64,000 nucleotides of DNA, taken from positions 11,057 to 75,056 of the forward strand of contig JAXHNJ010000003.1 of the NCBI GenBank assembly GCA_034520665.1, given 5' to 3'. The notes below the pieces were generated by a model. It did no database searches. It was given only the letters and a program-made list of their open reading frames with translations, and was not told the DNA's origin. A program made the position numbers and the translations under genes. Source of the DNA: Patescibacteria group bacterium (GTDB lineage Bacteria; Patescibacteriota; Patescibacteriia; JAXHNJ01). Of the stretch, positions 11-64,000 are shown piece after piece (positions within the stretch are counted from its first letter, which is position 1; every line of letters starts with the position of its first letter).

Positions 11-71
11 CTTAATCACTCAATCAACTCAATTAACTATAATTAACTTAAATTAACTCAACCCCTAAACT
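11..71 (+). repeat. stop-codon-rich octamer array, copy A (overlaps cysS stop)
   Basis: cttaatcactcaatcaactcaattaactataattaacttaaattaactcaacccctaaact; units of A(A/T)(T/C)(A/C)AACTA; same family as copies B to F. Confidence 0.7.
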
Positions 72-17835: not shown

Positions 17836-17882
17836 CCGCCAGAGCCTGCCTGTGGCAGACAAGGCGGATCCCCCGTAGGGGG
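17836..17882. other. GC-rich double hairpin immediately 3' of murB
   Basis: ccgcc-agag-cctgcc-tgt-ggcagac-aa-ggcgg, then cccccGTAggggg; about 65% GC in an AT-rich intergenic region. Confidence 0.5.
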
Positions 17883-17885
17883 ACA

Positions 17886-17931
17886 ATTAACTTAATCAAC
17901 TCTCTTAAATTAACTCAACCTCTAAAACCCC
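17886..17931 (+). repeat. octamer array copy B (overlaps murB stop)
   Basis: caattaacttaatcaactctcttaaattaactcaacctctaaaacc. Confidence 0.7.
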
Positions 17932-19186: not shown

Positions 19187-19203
19187 GCGGATAAATTATC
19201 CGC
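19187..19203. promoter_or_regulatory. 17-bp perfect palindrome GCGGATAAATTATCCGC (candidate operator)
   Basis: Dyad-symmetric, 44 nt upstream of the GC-rich ORF89 on its strand. Confidence 0.45.
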
Positions 19204-19266
19204 AGATCTCCGGCCTCATTTAGAGACTAAAAACTTAATATCTTAATGTCCAATATCTCGATATCT

Positions 19267-19310
19267 TAATATCTAATAACTCAACAACTTAATTAACTAA
19301 TCAACCAACC
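19267..19310 (+). repeat. octamer array copy C (overlaps murC stop)
   Basis: taatatctaataactcaacaacttaattaactaatcaaccaacc. Confidence 0.7.
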
Positions 19311-25176: not shown

Positions 25177-25511
25177 GGTTATATTATATATTATTTATAC
25201 TAAATAATAAAGTAATTTATTTATTTAATAAAATTTGATTAAAAAAAAGACCCCGTCAATGTGATCTTGTCTAGATTAGAAATTAATGTTATTCAACAAG
25301 GAATTTATCCCAAAACATCTTTGAAACGAGAAATTATTTTTGTATAAATAAAAATTGAATGGACAAATTTTCTGAAGGCTAGTTAGGGCACTCTATTTTA
25401 AAACATCTAGCCGAATTATGAATGGTCGAAAACCCGGAGGCAAGGATTCTATTTTTGATATTAGGCGGGATAAAGAATAAACCGCTAAACAAATTATTAA
25501 ACTTCTCAAAT

Positions 25512-25688
25512 CCGAGAAGCGCGGATCTCCTGATCCGCGTCACCTTATTCGGTTGGATCAGGAGATCCAACCTTCTCGAGCAAAAATAGATTATTAAATC
25601 TCTAATTCACCGAGAAGCTCTGGCCCCCAGGCCTTGAGCTTAGTAAATATATTGCCAGAACCGGTCTGGGGACCAGTTCTTTTCGCGA
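25512..25688 (+). pseudogene. about 177-nt repeat: two hairpins (cgcggatc/gatccgcg; ggttggatc/gatccaacc) followed by a roughly 100-nt sense fragment of the RAYT gene
   Basis: Identical to 42477-42653. The 3' 100 nt align with the reverse complement of 51604-51700 (the RAYT ORF region encoding KQIIKSLNHREALAPRPELSKYIARTGLGTGSS); homology decays by about 25735. Confidence 0.7.
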
Positions 25689-25738
25689 TAAAATAATAGA
25701 GTCTTTTAAAAAAGTTTTAAAAAAAACCGAAGATGAAT

Positions 25739-25763
25739 CTGGAGATAAATCTCCAGCTACGCG
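25739..25763 (+). repeat. REP-like palindrome, family 1 (CTGGAGATAAATCTCCAG + CTACGCG)
   Basis: Perfect 8-bp arms ctggagat/atctccag followed by ctacgcg (GTAG on the other strand). Identical copies at 41561-41585 and 41654-41678. Confidence 0.8.
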
Positions 25764-25833
25764 GAATGAGGATGGATTGAAAACCAAAGATAAATCAACA
25801 GCGGTTCAAAAAGAAGAAAAACCTTCTACTCAA

Positions 25834-25899
25834 CGCGTAGGCAAAAGATTTATCTCCGCCTTTAAATAAAATCGCCTAGGCGGGAATCCCTATTCCCGC
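25834..25899 (-). repeat. composite repeat, family 3 (degenerate REP cgcgtaggcaaaagatttatctccgcc plus cgcctaggcg and gggaat/attccc hairpins)
   Basis: Near-identical 66-nt unit at 42282-42347. Confidence 0.7.
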
Positions 25900-26046
25900 A
25901 ATACATTAACAATAATCATAACCTTAAAAAGAATATATTTAGCCAATCAATATTATTTTATAATCAAATTTTTACGACAAAAGCCTAGATGTTATTCGCT
26001 TCCTCAAAGATAAACCCACCTCTCAAAAAGAAGCGATCACTAAACA

Positions 26047-26078
26047 CCTTAATCACTCAGTAACTCAATCAACTCCCC
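26047..26078 (+). repeat. octamer array copy D (overlaps mraY stop)
   Basis: ccttaatcactcagtaactcaatcaactcccc; the first 20 nt are nearly identical to copy A. Confidence 0.65.
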
Positions 26079-39217: not shown

Positions 39218-39269
39218 AAAAAAATATATTAATTAATAAGTATTTCAATTATAACTAATAAAAGCCGGG

Positions 39270-39298
39270 TTGACAAATAAGAAGATCTATTATAGAAT
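39270..39298 (+). promoter_or_regulatory. sigma-70-type promoter for rpmA
   Basis: TTGACA, 17-nt spacer, TAGAAT (extended TATAGAAT). Transcription would start just before octamer array E. Confidence 0.55.
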
Positions 39299-39300
39299 AT

Positions 39301-39425
39301 TAATAATTAAAACCTAACTAATCAACTCAACCAATTAACTAAATTAACTAATCAACTAAACAACTAATTAACCATTCAACTAAACAACTAATTAACTAAA
39401 TTAACTAATCAACTAATTAACTATT
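39301..39425 (+). repeat. octamer array copy E (longest, about 15 units; 5' leader of rpmA)
   Basis: aacctaactaatcaactcaaccaattaactaaattaactaatcaactaaacaactaattaaccattcaactaaacaactaattaactaaattaactaatcaactaattaactatttc, ending 4 nt before the rpmA ATG. Confidence 0.8.
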
Positions 39426-39428
39426 TCT

Positions 39429-39710
39429 ATGGCCCATAAAAAAGCCGGCGGTTCCACTTCATTAGGCCGCGATTCAACCAGTAAAAGATTGGGGGTTAAG
39501 ATCCATCATGGCGCCTTGGCCCAGGCGGGCTCTATTATTATCCGTCAGAGAGGAACTAAATTCAGACCTGGTAAAAATGTCAAAAAAGGAGCTGATGACA
39601 CCCTTTATACCACCACCACTGGTTATGTTGAATTTATTAAACGCAAACTAAAAAGATTTGACGGTAAAATAAAACCGGCCCGTATAGTTAACATCATCCC
39701 CAAAAAATAA
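39429..39710 (+). CDS. rpmA: 50S ribosomal protein L27
   Basis: 93 aa. [16 protein letters not shown]...[30 protein letters not shown] is nearly canonical bL27. No rplU upstream. Confidence 0.95.
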
Positions 39711-41040: not shown

Positions 41041-41215
41041 ACATAAAAAAATAGCCAAGAGATGTGAGTTTTTGGCTAAGACTAATCTAGATTTGCAACA
41101 GCAAATTATTGCACTCAATGACCGTTTCATAGAGGTCTGTAAAGATAAAATTGAACTCATTGACGAAAAAAAAGAACTGGAAGATTTGCTTAGAGAAAAA
41201 AGAGGAGGAAATTAA
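41033..41215 (+). CDS. small coiled-coil protein
   Basis: 60 aa, heptad-like, overlaps the upstream ORF by 8 nt. Its 3' end plus terminator is duplicated at 42876-42950. Confidence 0.3.
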   Translation: MSEHKKIAKRCEFLAKTNLDLQQQIIALNDRFIEVCKDKIELIDEKKELEDLLREKRGGN

Positions 41216-41254
41216 AAAAGAGCTCGGTTTTTAAGCTCAAACTAATTTTACCAG

Positions 41255-41285
41255 GCTGCGCTTTTTAAGCGCAGCTTTTTTTTTA
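41255..41285 (+). terminator. rho-independent terminator
   Basis: gctgcgc-tttttaa-gcgcagc followed by a T9 run, downstream of the 40654-41215 ORF pair. A related hairpin plus T-run copy is at 42927-42954. Confidence 0.65.
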
Positions 41286-41560
41286 TTTAATGAATCCTGA
41301 ATAGAAATCTGATGCTTAGACAGGTATTGAGTCTCCCGGATAATATCTGCTAAACACGCCATTTTTTGCGTAAGCGGAGATTTATTCCCGCTATTTTTAA
41401 TAAGAAATGAGTGTTTGGTAAATTGAAAAATAAAATTTATATACAAAGAATAATTTATGCCAAATTATTATTAATACCCTAAATTATACCAAAAAGAAGT
41501 TTAATTATCTTCTTAATGCTTATGTAATTATGATAAAACAGGCTCATTTAATTTTGACAT

Positions 41561-41585
41561 CTGGAGATAAATCTCCAGCTACGCG
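41561..41585 (+). repeat. REP-like palindrome, family 1
   Basis: ctggagataaatctccagctacgcg. Confidence 0.8.
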
Positions 41586-41594
41586 GTTGGAGAG

Positions 41595-41652
41595 GTGGAG
41601 ATGGGGATCTGAACCAGAGTCGCGCTAAGCGCGACTTACTAAATAAGATATA
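41595..41652 (+). repeat. 58-nt repeat with agtcgcgc-taa-gcgcgact palindrome
   Basis: gtggagatggggatctgaaccagagtcgcgctaagcgcgacttactaaataagatata; second copy at 42808-42865. Confidence 0.7.
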
Positions 41653-41653
41653 T

Positions 41654-41678
41654 CTGGAGATAAATCTCCAGCTACGCG
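41654..41678 (+). repeat. REP-like palindrome, family 1
   Basis: ctggagataaatctccagctacgcg. Confidence 0.8.
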
Positions 41679-41725
41679 ATTGGAGAGGTTTGTTTACGAG
41701 TAGGTAAAAGATTTATCTCCGCTAA

Positions 41726-41835
41726 TTTACCAAGAAGTCTGAACTTAGTAAATATATTGCCAGAACCGGTCTGGGGACCAGTTCTTCTCGCGAAAAAATC
41801 TTTTTTAAAATATCGCCATATGAATGTTGCGCCAA
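41726..41835 (+). pseudogene. third, internally deleted RAYT-fragment copy plus shared 3' extension (cttttttaaaatatcgccatatgaatgttgcgcc)
   Basis: Matches 42570-42701 except for a deletion of about 20 nt; the 3' extension motif occurs again at 42150-42192. Confidence 0.6.
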
Positions 41836-41883
41836 ATTATATTTTATATTATTTAATAGCCTGGCGCCGGATTTATCCGGCGA

Positions 41884-42150
41884 TTTATGTTTTGCTAATT
41901 GGTTATGGTTATAGCAGCTAGTAAGGTTTTGGTTGTGGGTTTGGAATAAAAAACCATTGACTCAGCCTAATAACCAAACTAGCGGCTCGGCCCAAAACCC
42001 TCTTTTTTGCTAATTGGTTATGGTTATAGCAGCTAGTAAGGTTTTGGTGGTGGGTTTGGAATAAAAAAACCATTGACTCAGCCTAATAACCAAACTAGCG
42101 GCTCGGCCCAAAGCACTTTGTTTTAAGGCTAATTGGTTTATACTTGTGGA
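41884..42150 (+). repeat. tandem direct repeat, about 124-nt unit, 2.2 copies
   Basis: Unit tgctaattggttatggttatagcagctagtaaggttttggt.gtgggtttggaataaaaaaccattgactcagcctaataaccaaactagcggctcggcccaaa...; copies about 95% identical. Confidence 0.75.
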
Positions 42151-42281
42151 GTAATCTTTTTAAAATGTCGCCATATAAATGTTGCGCCAGGAAATAATAT
42201 TATTCTAATCTCTCTGGCGCCGGCTTCTAAGCCAGTGCTATAAGTTTGTATATTAAAAAATAGAATCTAATTACTTTCTAT

Positions 42282-42347
42282 CGCCTAGGCAAAAGATTTA
42301 TCTCCGCGTTTAAATAAAATCGCCTAGGCAGAAATCTCTATTCCCGC
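42282..42347 (-). repeat. composite repeat, family 3, second copy
   Basis: cgcctaggcaaaagatttatctccgcgtttaaataaaatcgcctaggcagaaatctctattcccgc. Confidence 0.7.
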
Positions 42348-42476
42348 TATATATTAAATATTCAAATAGTATGCTTTTGTTTAAATTTATTTTAATATCG
42401 ATAAATCAGGCGTAGAGGCGGGTCATGGCCCGCACCGCCTTATAAAACAAACTGCCAAGGAAACCCTTAAAATTAC

Positions 42477-42653
42477 CCGAGAAGCGCGGATCTCCTGATC
42501 CGCGTCACCTTATTCGGTTGGATCAGGAGATCCAACCTTCTCGAGCAAAAATAGATTATTAAATCTCTAATTCACCGAGAAGCTCTGGCCCCCAGGCCTT
42601 GAGCTTAGTAAATATATTGCCAGAACCGGTCTGGGGACCAGTTCTTTTCGCGA
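42477..42653 (+). pseudogene. second copy of the 177-nt hairpin plus RAYT-fragment repeat
   Basis: Nearly identical to 25512-25688. Confidence 0.7.
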
Positions 42654-42950
42654 AAAAACCTTTTTTAAAATATCGCCATATGAATGTTGCGCCGGGTTGT
42701 ATTTTAAATTATTAAACCTTCTGTGAACGAATTTATTCGGCGCTATGTTCTTAAAAAAAATGATACATTCTCACGCTTTCGCGTGGACACCACTTACTAT
42801 TGTTAAAGTGGAGATGGGGATCTGAACCACAGTCGCGCTAAGCGCGACTTACTAAATAAGATATAGAAAAGATCAGGGAGGAAATTAAAAAAGAGCTTGG
42901 TTTTTAAGCTCAAATTTTTTTCCCAAGGCTGTGGTAAACACAGCCTTTTT

Positions 42951-56071: not shown

Positions 56072-56202
56072 AGCTCAAAATTCAAAACAAATCCTAAATT
56101 ATAATATCTAAATTCAAAACTTTTGTAATATATAGGGTTTTGAATTTTAATTTTTAATTATTTGGTATTATTTTGTACTTTGAATTTTGAAATTTGAATT
56201 TA

Positions 56203-56246
56203 ACAAAACTAATTAACCAATCAACAAATTAACTATTCCTCTAACT
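56203..56246 (+). repeat. octamer array copy F (overlaps rmlC-like stop)
   Basis: aacaaaactaattaaccaatcaacaaattaactattcctctaact. Confidence 0.65.
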
Positions 56247-59848: not shown

Positions 59849-61660
59849 ATGAAAAATATAAATAATAACGAAAATATTGAATTAGTTAATTTAGTGGCTG
59901 CTGGCAGTGTTGACGACGGCAAATCCACTCTTATCGGCCGGCTGATGTATGATTCCAAAGTAATCTCTGCTGACCAACTTAGAACCGTTAAAATAACCAG
60001 TAAAAAAAGAGGTTTTGAGGGTATTGATTTTTCTCTTTTCACTGACGGGCTTTCGGCTGAACGCGAGCAAGGTATTACTATAGATGTAGCTTACCGCTAT
60101 TTTGGCACCAAAAAAAGAAGATTTGTTATTGCTGATGTGCCCGGACACGAACAGTATACCCGTAATATGGTTACCGGGGCTTCAAAAGCTAACCTGGCCC
60201 TTTTAATTGCCGACGCCAGAAAGGGTCTTTTAATCCAGTCAAAAAGACATTTATTTATAGCTTCTCTCTTGGGCATTCCTCATATTGCTATTATAGTCAA
60301 TAAAATGGATTTGATGAATTATCAGGAAAAAACTTATGATAAAATAAAAGACGATTTTACTAATTTTGCCGCTAAAATGAATATTTCTGATTTACAATTT
60401 ATTCCCGTTTCCTCACTCAAAGGAGATATGGTCGTTAATCGCAGAGATAATATGCCCTGGTATAACGGGCCAACCGTTTTATCCTATCTTGAGAATTTAG
60501 AAATTTCCTCTGATCGAAATATGATTGATTTCCGCTTTCCTATTCAATATGTTATTCGTCCTCACCAAAATTTCCGAGGCTTGGCCGGAAAAATAGAAGG
60601 CGGTACTATTAAGCCTGGTCAGAAGGTAAAAGTTTTGCCTTCTGGAAAAGAAACCAAAATAGATAAATTAATTTGTCATCAAAAAAGTCAAAAACTTTGT
60701 TATAACCCCCAGTCAATAGTCATTAAATTGAAGGATGAAGTAGACGCCAGCCGCGGTGATATGATTGTAAAGTCAAAAAATATTCCTGAAATTTCAAAAA
60801 GTTTTAACGCCATGGTTTGCTGGTTTTCTGATACTCCTCTTGATCAAGACAAAACCTATCTTTTAAAGCACCTTGCTAAAACTACTCGCTGTTCCTTAAA
60901 AAAACTGCAGTATATTATAAACATAGATAATCTTCACCGAAAAAAAGCTAATAAATTAAAAATAAATGAAATTGGCAAAATAAATATTACCACTAATGAG
61001 CCGATTTTGTTTGATCCATACCCTAAAAATAGAAACACCGGTTGTTTTATTATTATTGACCAGTTAACTAACAATACCATTGCCGCCGGAGTAATTATTG
61101 ACCGAGCTAAGGAAAAAAAGAAAGCCAGTAAGTCTCTTAAAAAAGGAGCTGTGCTTTGGTTTACCGGCCTGTCCGGCTCGGGTAAAAGTACAGTAGCCAA
61201 TAAGGTCTATGAAATTCTTAGTAAAAAAGGGATTGATTGCCAGAGACTGGACGGCGATATTATGCGCCAGTCTTTATCCAAAGACCTTGGTTTCAGCAAA
61301 AAAGACCGAGAAACTAATATTGAAAGAGCTGGCTTTGTAGCTGAAATATTGGCTAAACACGAGGTAATGGTTTTAACTGCCTTTATTTCGCCCTATAAAA
61401 AACAAAGAGCTGAATTAAGAAAAAAAATTGATAATTTTGTGGAAATTTTTGTTGAGGCTCCCCTCTCTCTTTGTGAAAAAAGAGATGTTAAAGGCCTTTA
61501 TAAAAAGGCTAAAAAAGGAGAAATTAAGCACTTCACTGGCATCAGCCACCCTTATGAAAAACCCCAAAATCCACAAGTAACTCTTCATACAAAAAAAGAA
61601 TCTCTGAATACTTCGGCTAATAAAGTTATTACTTATTTAAGAAAAAATAATTATATATAA
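59849..61660 (+). CDS. cysNC: bifunctional sulfate adenylyltransferase subunit 1 / adenylylsulfate kinase (CysN-CysC fusion)
   Basis: 603 aa. N-terminal GTPase (GSVDDGKSTLIGRL, DVPGHEQY, NKMD). C-terminal APS kinase (LWFTGLSGSGKSTVA). Confidence 0.92.
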   Translation: MKNINNNENIELVNLVAAGSVDDGKSTLIGRLMYDSKVISADQLRTVKITSKKRGFEGIDFSLFTDGLSAEREQGITIDVAYRYFGTKKRRFVIADVPGHEQYTRNMVTGASKANLALLIADARKGLLIQSKRHLFIASLLGIPHIAIIVNKMDLMNYQEKTYDKIKDDFTNFAAKMNISDLQFIPVSSLKGDMVVNRRDNMPWYNGPTVLSYLENLEISSDRNMIDFRFPIQYVIRPHQNFRGLAGKIEGGTIKPGQKVKVLPSGKETKIDKLICHQKSQKLCYNPQSIVIKLKDEVDASRGDMIVKSKNIPEISKSFNAMVCWFSDTPLDQDKTYLLKHLAKTTRCSLKKLQYIINIDNLHRKKANKLKINEIGKINITTNEPILFDPYPKNRNTGCFIIIDQLTNNTIAAGVIIDRAKEKKKASKSLKKGAVLWFTGLSGSGKSTVANKVYEILSKKGIDCQRLDGDIMRQSLSKDLGFSKKDRETNIERAGFVAEILAKHEVMVLTAFISPYKKQRAELRKKIDNFVEIFVEAPLSLCEKRDVKGLYKKAKKGEIKHFTGISHPYEKPQNPQVTLHTKKESLNTSANKVITYLRKNNYI

Positions 61661-61661
61661 C

Positions 61662-62453
61662 TTGGAAGAAATAAATTTATTAAAAAAGGCGGTCAAAAAA
61701 GCCGGTCGGGTAGCCTTAAATTATTACCACAGCAAAAATATTATCCATGAGGACGGCTACACTCCCCTAACCAAGGCTGATTTTGCCTCAGAAAAAGTTT
61801 TAATCAGCGAATTAAAAAAAACGCCTTATAAAATACTTTCCGAACACCAGGATAATAAAGAAAGATTAAAAGAAAATAAAATCTGGATTATTGATCCTTT
61901 AGACGGCACCAAAGACTTTATTCAGAAAACCGGTGAGTTTTCTATTATGGCCGCTTTAACCCAAAATAACAAGCCGATCATAGGCGCTATCTACCAGCCA
62001 GTGACAAAAAAATTATATTACGCCCAAAAAGATAAAGGCGCCTTTCTAAAGCAAGGTAGAAATAAACCGATTAAATTATCAGTTTCAAATAATACTGACT
62101 TTACCGATATGTCTCTACTAGTCAGTCGTAATCATTTATTGCCCGGTGAAATAAAGCTTTGTGAAAATTTAAAAATCGGTAAAAAAATACCCTACGGCAG
62201 TGCCGGCCTAAAAGCGGCTCTTATCTGCGAGCAAAAAGCTGACATTTATCTTAATAGCAGTGACCAAACCGGCGAATGGGATATCGGCGCCGCTGAAATT
62301 ATTTTTAAAGAAGCCGGCGGTAAGATTACCGATATGTTGGGGCATGACTTAAAATACAATAAAAAGAAACCAATTAATAAACAGGGATTTGTTCTATCTC
62401 ATAAATTAGTTCATAAAAAAATAATCTCTGAACTTAAAAAAATTAATGAGTAA
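61662..62453 (+). CDS. cysQ: 3'(2'),5'-bisphosphate nucleotidase (CysQ / inositol monophosphatase family)
   Basis: 263 aa. WIIDPLDGTKDF metal-binding motif, second motif in the SAGLKAALICE region. Confidence 0.8.
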   Translation: MEEINLLKKAVKKAGRVALNYYHSKNIIHEDGYTPLTKADFASEKVLISELKKTPYKILSEHQDNKERLKENKIWIIDPLDGTKDFIQKTGEFSIMAALTQNNKPIIGAIYQPVTKKLYYAQKDKGAFLKQGRNKPIKLSVSNNTDFTDMSLLVSRNHLLPGEIKLCENLKIGKKIPYGSAGLKAALICEQKADIYLNSSDQTGEWDIGAAEIIFKEAGGKITDMLGHDLKYNKKKPINKQGFVLSHKLVHKKIISELKKINE

Positions 62454-63537
62454 GCCGTCAAAAAAAATATTAATACTTAATTATGAATTTCCTCCTTTGG
62501 GCGGTGGGGCTTCTCCGGTTTCGTATGAGATAGCCAAAGGTTATGTTCAGAGAGAGCATAAAGTGGATGTTGTGACTATGAGTTATAAAGACCTGCCTTC
62601 TTATGAAAATAAAGATGGAATTAATATCTATAGAGTTCCTTGTTTAAGAAGTAAAAAGGAAATTTGTCATCCTTGGGAACAATTAATATATATTATTTCA
62701 GCAAAAAGATTTCTAAGAAAACATCTTAAGAATAACTCTTATGATATTAATCACACTCATTTTATTATTCCTACAGGAATTATTGCAAAATGGTTGAAGA
62801 AGAAATTTGGAATACCTTATATTATTACAAGTCATGGGAGTGATGTTTTGGGTTACAACAATAAAAGAAGTTTCAAGTATATTTATCCCTTAGTTAAAAA
62901 ACAATGGAAAGAAATTGTTAAGGAAGCCAAAGCTGTTGTTTGTCCATCTAATTTCTTGAAAAATAAAATTCTGAACATTACAACACAAGGAAACTTAAAA
63001 GTCATTCCTAATGGAATTGATAAGAACAAATTTAAACCAATGAAAAAAGAAAAAAGAATTTTAATTGTTACAAGACTTTTTGAAAATAAAGGAGTTCAGG
63101 ATGTTTTGGATGCATTAAAAGGATTAAATTTGAAAGGTTGGAAAGTAGATATTGTAGGTGAAGGACCATATAGAAATTTCTTAGAAAAAAAAGCAAAAGA
63201 AAACAACTTAAAAGATATAGTAAAATTTCATGGTTGGGTAGAAAATAATTCTAAAGAAATGAAAAATCTTTATGGACATGCAAGTATTTTTATAAGTGCT
63301 AGTTGGTTTGAAAGTTTTGGATTAACTGTTTTAGAAGCAATTCAAGCTGGATGCTATCCTCTAGTTTCAGATATTGGAGGTCACAGAGAAATATTAAAAA
63401 ATAAAAAATATTTTCTTAATAAAGATTTAAAGATAAAAATTGAAAAATTAATAAACCAAAAAATTAATCCTCCAAAGTTTAACCAAAATTATAATTGGAA
63501 GAATGTAATTAAAAAATATGAGGAGATTTTGAGATGA
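62446..63537 (+). CDS. GT4 (GT-B) glycosyltransferase
   Basis: 363 aa. EFPPLGGGASPVSYEIAKG N-terminus; C-terminal E..FGLTVLEA...G.P.V motif. Confidence 0.85.
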   Translation: MSKPSKKILILNYEFPPLGGGASPVSYEIAKGYVQREHKVDVVTMSYKDLPSYENKDGINIYRVPCLRSKKEICHPWEQLIYIISAKRFLRKHLKNNSYDINHTHFIIPTGIIAKWLKKKFGIPYIITSHGSDVLGYNNKRSFKYIYPLVKKQWKEIVKEAKAVVCPSNFLKNKILNITTQGNLKVIPNGIDKNKFKPMKKEKRILIVTRLFENKGVQDVLDALKGLNLKGWKVDIVGEGPYRNFLEKKAKENNLKDIVKFHGWVENNSKEMKNLYGHASIFISASWFESFGLTVLEAIQAGCYPLVSDIGGHREILKNKKYFLNKDLKIKIEKLINQKINPPKFNQNYNWKNVIKKYEEILR

Positions 63538-64000
63538 AAGATAAAATCAAGGTTATTTATATTTCCGGAATTGGTCGAAGCGGTTCTACTCTCTTAGATT
63601 TATTAATTTCCACAAATGATAGTGTATTTAGTGTTGGAGAAATTTATAAATATAATGAATTAAAGAAGAGAAATATAGAATGTAGTTGTGGAAATAAGTT
63701 TAACAAATGTATTTTTTGGAAAAATTTTGTTAATAATAAAACAAAAATTATAAATCGCATGAATCTTAAAGATTATCTAAAGATGATAAATTTTTTGTTG
63801 AATCCTCTTTCAAAAAAAATAAACTTCAAGGATAAATCTCAAGATTATGATCTATTTACAAAAATAAAAAAAGAAAATCCAAATGTCGAGTACATCCTCG
63901 ACTCATCCAAGGATATTGCAAGATTAATTGAACTTGACTCTGACCCGCGAATTGAGATATATAATATTTCTATAATTAGAGATGGAAGAGCAGTTGCAAA
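63536..64000 (+). CDS. sulfotransferase-family protein (partial, runs off the window)
   Basis: Starts at the ATGA overlap with the GT4 stop. YISGIGRSGSTLLDLLIS is a PAPS-binding 5'-PSB-like loop as in Stf0/Sulfotransfer_3 families; context is cysD-cysNC-cysQ. Confidence 0.5.

Follow-up and report, generated by a model that had tools for sequence, protein, structure and literature searches.

The window analysed here, a 64-kb stretch of a Patescibacteria contig, contains six short tandem arrays (A to F), each of which touches the end of a protein-coding gene (Table 1). Pfam searches confirmed the genes flanking five of them as CysS, MurB, MurC, MraY, and an RmlC-like epimerase, all encoded on the minus strand. 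The remaining array, E, precedes rpmA, whose translation we take to be typical of L27. The same searches identified SecA/D/F, a type IV pilus cluster, L9, and other proteins in the window, and no Rfam families or tRNAs were found within the 64 kb. The closest MurB relatives are only 57–62% identical, and exact-protein look-ups with the cysS and rpmA products found no record.

Table 1. Arrays and neighbouring features of the window (the strand of an array is that of the gene it adjoins; scores are plus-strand vocabulary scores as defined in the text).
Feature	Position	Strand	Description
Array A	11..71	-	3′ trailer from the cysS stop codon (58-60); runs up to the window edge; score 22
Array B	17883..17931	-	3′ trailer of murB, stop codon 17922-17924; fills the space from stop codon to GC-rich hairpin; score 18
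Array C	19261..19310	-	3′ trailer of murC, stop codon 19297-19299; score 19
Array D	26047..26078	-	short 3′ trailer of mraY, stop codon 26069-26071; score 10
Array E	39301..39428	+	about 13 units; makes up the complete predicted 5′ leader of rpmA (ATG at 39429)
Array F	56203..56246	-	3′ trailer of the RmlC-like gene, stop codon 56233-56235; score 17
Two GC-rich hairpins	17870-17882 and 17836-17867	-	immediately 3′ of B in gene sense; fold z = -3.4
Hairpin after C	19187-19203
Hairpin after D	25997-26035
Predicted rpmA promoter	39270..39298	+	TTGACA-17-TAGAAT; 11/12 matches on each strand
rpmA	39429..39710	+	ribosomal protein L27; gene downstream of E
Two promoter-like sites	39248-39298		both strong; common palindromic TTGACAA/TTGTCAA
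Repeat beside C	19226-19309		23-nt period
Repeat beside F	56170-56201		7-mer ATTTTGA, 4.6 copies; AT-rich
Gene-free spacer	25177-26068		892 nt, from mraY to a PD-(D/E)XK/Cas4-like gene
Tandem repeat	41890-42145		115-bp unit, 2.2 copies, 90% match

The arrays are built of degenerate direct repeats in tandem, with units of 8–10 nt such as AATTAACTAA, AATCAACTAA, AACTCAAT, TTAACTAA, and TCAACTAA. The consensus unit is approximately W-A-T-Y-A-A-C-Y plus 0–2 bases, with a core of TAACT or CAACT. On the plus strand G is missing from five arrays and occurs once in D (3%), C accounts for 20–31% (41% in D), and A+T for 59–80% (56% in D). Read on this strand, none of the arrays contains a possible start codon, and TAA stops occur in most frames. 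[quoted passage not shown] Our analysis showed that the six are present where they had been placed, that the common orientation is borne out (the vocabulary scores of A, B, C, and F are also obtained on the plus strand), and that in every array all three minus-strand frames contain a stop codon.

An independent Logan assembly matches B and C with zero mismatches (B in Logan contig L144), which indicates that the arrays are not an assembly artefact. Logan contigs end at positions 89, 17844/17862, 25541, and 56578 of the window, several of these ends being close to array-side hairpins. Another contig (L006, run SRR26473339) carries a glycosyltransferase identical to that at 61464-63998; its nucleotides do not match the window position by position, suggesting that it comes from a strain with indels. 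Repeats of other kinds adjoin C and F (Table 1), so the same spacers house more than one type of repeat. Around the 115-bp tandem repeat, no ORF longer than 70 aa and no Rfam match was found within the 1.9 kb at 41041-42950, which extends from a small hypothetical gene to pyrG.

For a vocabulary score, the 6-mers of E were counted in 40-nt windows. Simulated sequences (200, from Markov models of order 2 and order 4, scored on both strands) peaked at 15, and the best score on the real minus strand was 12, within a coding region. A, B, C, and F are well above the simulated scores; D is at chance level. Despite this score, D was grouped with A because of exact matches. As had been noticed before, the two share a head, which consists of the exact 13-mer CCTTAATCACTCA, with only two copies in the window, followed by CTCAATCAACTC, and the difference between the two heads is one 8-nt unit. 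A tail had also been proposed as common to A, B, and D; it is an exact 17-mer, TTAACTCAACCYCTAAA, in A and B and is absent from D. A scan of a genome collection for the tail motif AATTAACTCAACCYCTAAA returned 16 chance matches, all in coding regions of unrelated taxa. We confirmed that the six runs are real and non-random.

Five arrays lie at the stop codons of minus-strand genes, as the first-pass annotation had stated, with the stop inside the array or at its edge. In gene sense these five are composed of U, A, and G only, are free of C (except for one C in D), and are rich in stops. Array A reads TGA GTTAATTTAAGTTAATTATAGTTAATTGAGTTGATTGAGTGATTAAGG in gene sense, and B reads TAG-AGGTTGAGTTAATTTAAGAGAGTTGATTAAGTTAATT after murB. 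In C, the last codons of murC, L-V-D-stop (TTGGTTGATTAG), already match the repeat unit. The last codons of these genes, together with their native stop, thus conform to the repeat unit already, and the stop codon acts as the first unit. The possibility that the arrays create new C-termini was ruled out, since the C-termini of MurB, MurC, and MraY coincide with those of their homologues; in CysS, which has 478 residues, the CysS_C domain extends to residue 474, and at most three residues are uncertain.

The hairpins adjoining B, C, and D are GC-rich and have no U tract, and no intrinsic terminator, defined as a hairpin plus a U tract, was called at or in the arrays. A terminator hairpin as the constant partner of a trailer was rejected as well, since it is found in some cases only (median MFE −9.3 vs −6.0). 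No plus-strand promoter was predicted ahead of B, C, or F, and promoters driving plus-sense transcripts through these three arrays were rejected for this reason. A conserved structured RNA was likewise rejected, as the arrays gave no Rfam match, no tRNA, and no fold.

Array E is different in position. TRF assigned it a period of 8 and 13.6 copies, and the window has no G-free run longer than the 135-nt one that contains it. The predicted rpmA promoter stands back to back with a predicted promoter on the minus strand, which would serve a class-V aminotransferase gene. E begins only a few bases from where the transcript is expected to start and ends with TTAACTATTTCT-ATG of rpmA; it has no Shine-Dalgarno sequence, no start codon, and no G. 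Its fold (MFE −2.7 kcal/mol over 150 nt) is not better than those of shuffled sequences. E is predicted to be the entire 5′ leader of rpmA. Being unstructured, devoid of upstream start codons, and located in a predicted transcribed 5′ UTR, it has the sequence properties expected of a translational enhancer or standby leader, and it is the only leader-type array in the window. Shine-Dalgarno matches of at least 4 nt were found for 13 of the 59 window genes, and most starts are preceded by plain A/T-rich sequence. A few genes, such as cysNC, have a perfect Shine-Dalgarno sequence.

In three relatives the order of the mur genes is conserved, but the murB, murC, and mraY junctions have no arrays and are occupied instead by GC hairpins, short spacers, or other small genes. 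The arrays are therefore young or fast-changing. Small genes lost at the array sites were considered and rejected, since tblastn detected no remnants; in the gene-free spacer next to mraY, where small membrane-protein genes sit in relatives, no remnant was detected either.

The same vocabulary was found at no fewer than 120 metagenome stretches, in a sample that was selected by one pattern, includes related strains, and has crude greedy ORF calls. These stretches look like the window arrays, and some have more than 20 units. A first, loose pattern (AACTAA three times) had been dropped because it was unspecific and matched many coding repeats. One group of the metagenome stretches belongs to Bacteroidota, its SucD matches being named Paludibacter and Bacteroidales. 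Another locus, L252, represents a second Patescibacteria lineage, as its GroEL matches are named Patescibacteria, and there the array fills the groES-groEL spacer. In one Patescibacteria genome this spacer reads TGA-(TTAACTAA)x3-TTT-ATG, and in a close relative the array there is longer and mixed. The spacer reads TGA-TTAACTAATTAACTAATTAACTAATTT-ATG in a relative with 91% GroEL identity and is A/T-rich without repeats in one with 88% GroEL identity. The start-side genes of the metagenome arrays include groEL, sucD, and pyrG.

A palindrome, CCTCCCGATAGCTATCGGGA, directly adjoins the arrays in four contigs that resemble the Bacteroidota group (L247, L251, L273, and L282). In L310, L314, L326, L327, L332, L347, and others, two arrays of opposite orientation lie 40–250 nt apart and point outward; such pairs may be the leaders of divergent genes. 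A pattern scan also identified 104 viral stretches with matching vocabulary. In several phage contigs (L034, L046, L147, L150, and L155), a (AATTAACTAA)n array runs precisely up to the ATG of a gene for a gp32-like single-strand DNA-binding protein.

Orientation was analysed on 101 non-coding G-free arrays among the metagenome matches listed, and an array was counted at a start or stop codon if it lay at most 12 nt away. Near start codons, the arrays were in the G-free sense 15 times and in the C-free sense 3 times (p = 0.008). Near stop codons the C-free sense was found 19 times and the G-free sense once (p = 4e-5). Expressed by the ends of the G-free strand, the 3′ end lay at a gene boundary in 34 of 83 cases and the 5′ end in 4 of 72 (p = 1.6e-7). 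All eight stop-side metagenome genes that were tested have Pfam domains reaching their C-termini. The six window arrays all follow this gene-relative rule. However, viral contigs with perfect TTAACTAA arrays have both orientations at stop codons (13 vs 11), which counts against the rule.

The first-pass annotation had taken the strict polarity of the six arrays as pointing to a DNA-level, replication-oriented signal. This part of its interpretation was not supported: the gene-relative rule predicts the strand of each array, and the shared plus strand results from the rule because rpmA is on the plus strand and the five trailer genes are on the minus strand. The finding of six out of six on one strand (two-sided p ~0.03) comes from arrays that are not independent, A, B, and D sharing segments, and it is confounded with gene direction. 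In addition, 16 of the 23 other contigs with several arrays have both orientations, so a general chromosome polarity is not supported. The alternative that the annotation had offered, a 3′-UTR RNA motif, fits the position of five arrays.

The arrays were also compared with known systems. In agreement with the first-pass annotation, they are neither REP, CRISPR, nor classic terminators. CRISPR has repeats of 23–50 nt and unique spacers of similar length, whereas the units here are 8–10 nt and stand head to tail. REP/BIME elements and intrinsic terminators resemble the arrays in lying just after stop codons, inside operons or at their ends. However, the arrays differ from REP/BIME and MITE in being direct repeats that do not fold and whose ends are not inverted copies.

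Rather, the arrays are a local variant of a described kind, the closest being the TAACTGA heptamer direct repeats of marine Beggiatoaceae, cyanobacteria, and Bacteroidetes (MacGregor 2015, PMC4679880). Most TAACTGA sets point at a start codon without RBS and end a few bases away from it, ribosomal protein genes included, and sets toward a stop codon are a minority (12/170 in BOGUAY) (PMC4679880). They are missing from the same spacer in close relatives, have contig breaks nearby, and occur in hosts poor in Shine-Dalgarno sequences (PMC4679880). Like the window arrays, they are intergenic, tandem, and direct, have a TAACT core and no predicted structure, occur in both start-side and stop-side positions, and are patchy and lineage-specific. 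Within the window, the arrangement at a start codon without RBS is found in E only; it is also found before groEL in other Patescibacteria and in 15 metagenome arrays. The lack of RNA structure together with forward stops, the absence from the same spacer in relatives, the nearby contig breaks, and a host making little use of Shine-Dalgarno sequences are found here too. The exact 7-nt unit is not: the window units are 8–10 nt long, consist of TAACTNA plus 1–3 bases or of CAACT, and never of TAACTGA, and their strand is free of G (one G in D). Furthermore, five of the six window arrays are directed toward a stop codon, and the host is a member of Patescibacteria, a phylum new to this kind of repeat.

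The STRR of cyanobacteria are short tandem repeats in spacers. Together with the heptamers of Nostoc, they resemble the window arrays as short tandem spacer repeats near promoters or starts, but their units are 7 nt long and have different sequences, many with G. To our knowledge, an orientation rule at gene ends has not been described for these repeats. The Nostoc heptamers are located near start codons and are suspected of an effect on transcription or translation (bioRxiv 10.1101/2022.06.06.494920).

Array E, as far as its sequence tells, is similar to enhancer leaders, being a G-free, unstructured run of A, C, and U with repeated UUAACU cores in front of an AUG without Shine-Dalgarno sequence. 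Unstructured leaders of this kind are the epsilon enhancer of T7 gene 10 (UUAACUUUA), the CAA-rich and G-poor omega of TMV, and the A-rich leaders of Bacteroidetes. The UUAACU core of E recalls the epsilon enhancer. However, E is far longer and more repetitive than these leaders, and the trailer arrays have no counterpart among them. The translational operator of T4 gene 32 is also an unstructured leader with short A/U-rich repeats, which is bound by the product of its own gene. The metagenomic phage (AATTAACTAA)n arrays at the gp32-like ATG recall this operator; E differs from it in that the rpmA product is not a single-strand-binding protein.

Taken as a whole, the best explanation in our opinion is that the arrays are lineage-specific slippage repeats whose orientation is set by the adjoining gene and which have leader and trailer roles, a reading on which we are evenly divided. 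Replication slippage and unequal recombination in non-coding DNA would create the arrays and homogenise them. The fraction of units that stand next to an identical one is 0.80 at the centre of long arrays and 0.44 and 0.52 at their two ends; such homogeneous centres fit slippage or unequal exchange and disfavour growth from one end. One-end growth was also considered as an explanation of the 3′-end rule and was rejected, since the two ends are alike (p = 0.55) and the middle is the most uniform part. The exact end segments of 13–17 nt common to A, B, and D suggest, from their sequence, copying or gene conversion between loci, a step outside the proposed model that we count against it.

The analysis showed that the arrays lie only in untranslated gene ends and that their orientation goes with the neighbouring gene. 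According to the model, where an array reaches a start codon, the G-free strand would be the RNA, as for E before rpmA; where it begins from a stop codon, the C-free strand would be the RNA, as after cysS, murB, murC, mraY, and the RmlC-like gene. Both UTR assignments are predictions based on predicted promoters and gene order. A G-free leader without AUG, GUG, or UUG would load ribosomes independently of a Shine-Dalgarno sequence, possibly via S1 or another single-strand-binding protein. A C-free trailer would form an unstructured, stop-dense spacer between the stop codon and downstream hairpins or promoters, or may be merely tolerated rather than useful.

The proposed model is weakest in accounting for the scarcity of the G-free sense after stop codons. 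Stop density alone is a weak reason for the stop-side orientation, the C-free sense having 20 stops per 100 nt and the G-free sense 11. In 13 of the 19 stop-side arrays, the G-free sense has stops in all three frames. Since the G-free sense is thus also stop-rich after stops, its near-absence there needs another cost, for example unwanted loading of ribosomes or Rho.

Among the other explanations, the one that survives best, unlikely in our estimate but by no means negligible, is that the arrays are neutral slippage products without function at either gene end. The orientation rule would then only reflect which orientation is harmless in a leader, where it brings no upstream starts, or in a trailer. 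The absence of arrays from the same junctions in relatives, the homogeneous centres and degenerate ends of long arrays, the lack of RNA structure and of Rfam matches, and the chance-level vocabulary of D are all in favour of neutrality. However, arrays recur before highly expressed genes without Shine-Dalgarno sequences, such as rpmA here and groEL and sucD elsewhere, and the post-stop bias of 19 to 1 requires a cost of the G-free sense that neutrality does not supply.

At the opposite extreme, and somewhat more doubtful, the arrays could be a two-faced RNA module that is spread across the Shine-Dalgarno-poor phyla Bacteroidota and Patescibacteria. The G-free face would be a landing pad for ribosomes or for an S1/Csp-like factor, and the orientation after stop codons would be actively selected, either because the C-free face ends stray translation and remains invisible to ribosomes and Rho, or because the G-free face loads Rho on antisense transcripts that enter the 3′ end.

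The termination factor Rho may also be concerned, which we find improbable. The G-free, C-containing strand would be a Rho loading site that couples transcription to ribosome loading in leaders and stops antisense transcripts from AT-rich spacers at 3′ ends, the C-free mRNA sense being invisible to Rho. This agrees with the arrays being 44–128 nt long and unstructured with 20–31% C on the G-free strand, with the 3′ end of that strand pointing at the gene boundary, and with the near-absence of the G-free sense from mRNA after stops (1/20). The length of a rut site, at least 70 nt, is reached by E only. Rho prefers pyrimidine-C dinucleotides, but the TTAACT units have none. The lack of predicted plus-strand promoters ahead of B, C, and F also stands against this explanation, as does the fact that arrays in the G-free sense are common between co-directional genes (25 '++' contexts).

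A chromosome-strand-polar DNA signal tied to replication direction, such as a protein-binding array or an orientation-dependent site, has in our view little likelihood left. Besides the six of six arrays on the plus strand, it could draw on the cumulative GC skew, which drops steadily from 1 to ~56 kb, so that the arrays may share one replichore, and on Microcystis, in which eight TAACTGA sets between stop codons all have one chromosomal orientation (PMC4679880). However, the window skew largely tracks gene direction, and the neighbouring gene predicts orientation equally well; elsewhere, most multi-array contigs are mixed, as described above. The known polar signals Chi and KOPS are scattered through coding DNA, but the arrays are found in spacers only and touch gene ends.

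Slightly less credible still are operator-like sites for a sequence-specific DNA- or RNA-binding protein, which would bind cooperatively on the 8-nt unit and define a regulon. The unit is regular and common to several loci and phyla, the arrays of phage contigs end at the ATG of gp32-like genes in the manner of the T4 operator, and binders of the S1, Csp, or CsrA type have been proposed for the TAACTGA repeats (PMC4679880). However, no protein emerged as a candidate binder, the genes downstream of the arrays have unrelated functions, and the sequence, length, and copy number of the units are very loose. Finally, it is hardly believable that a small mobile element (MITE-, REP- or IS-derived) which inserts at stop codons left the arrays as remnants or carries them as cargo: A, B, and D have exact end segments in common, relatives have other genes or short spacers at the array places, and palindromes adjoin arrays here and in metagenome contigs, but there are no terminal inverted repeats, target duplication, or internal hairpin, no transposase nearby, and the protein C-termini are native.

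In Bacteroidota and Patescibacteria, little is understood of the way in which ribosomes locate starts that lack a Shine-Dalgarno sequence. With a repeat family that stands in place of a ribosome-binding site before rpmA, groEL, and sucD, a concrete sequence is available for tests in reporters. The orientation rule at both gene ends is a simple statistic that can be checked in any genome, and for annotation the arrays mark gene boundaries. If the arrays are neutral, they would be a clean case of selection on UTRs shaping which strand of a repeat survives.
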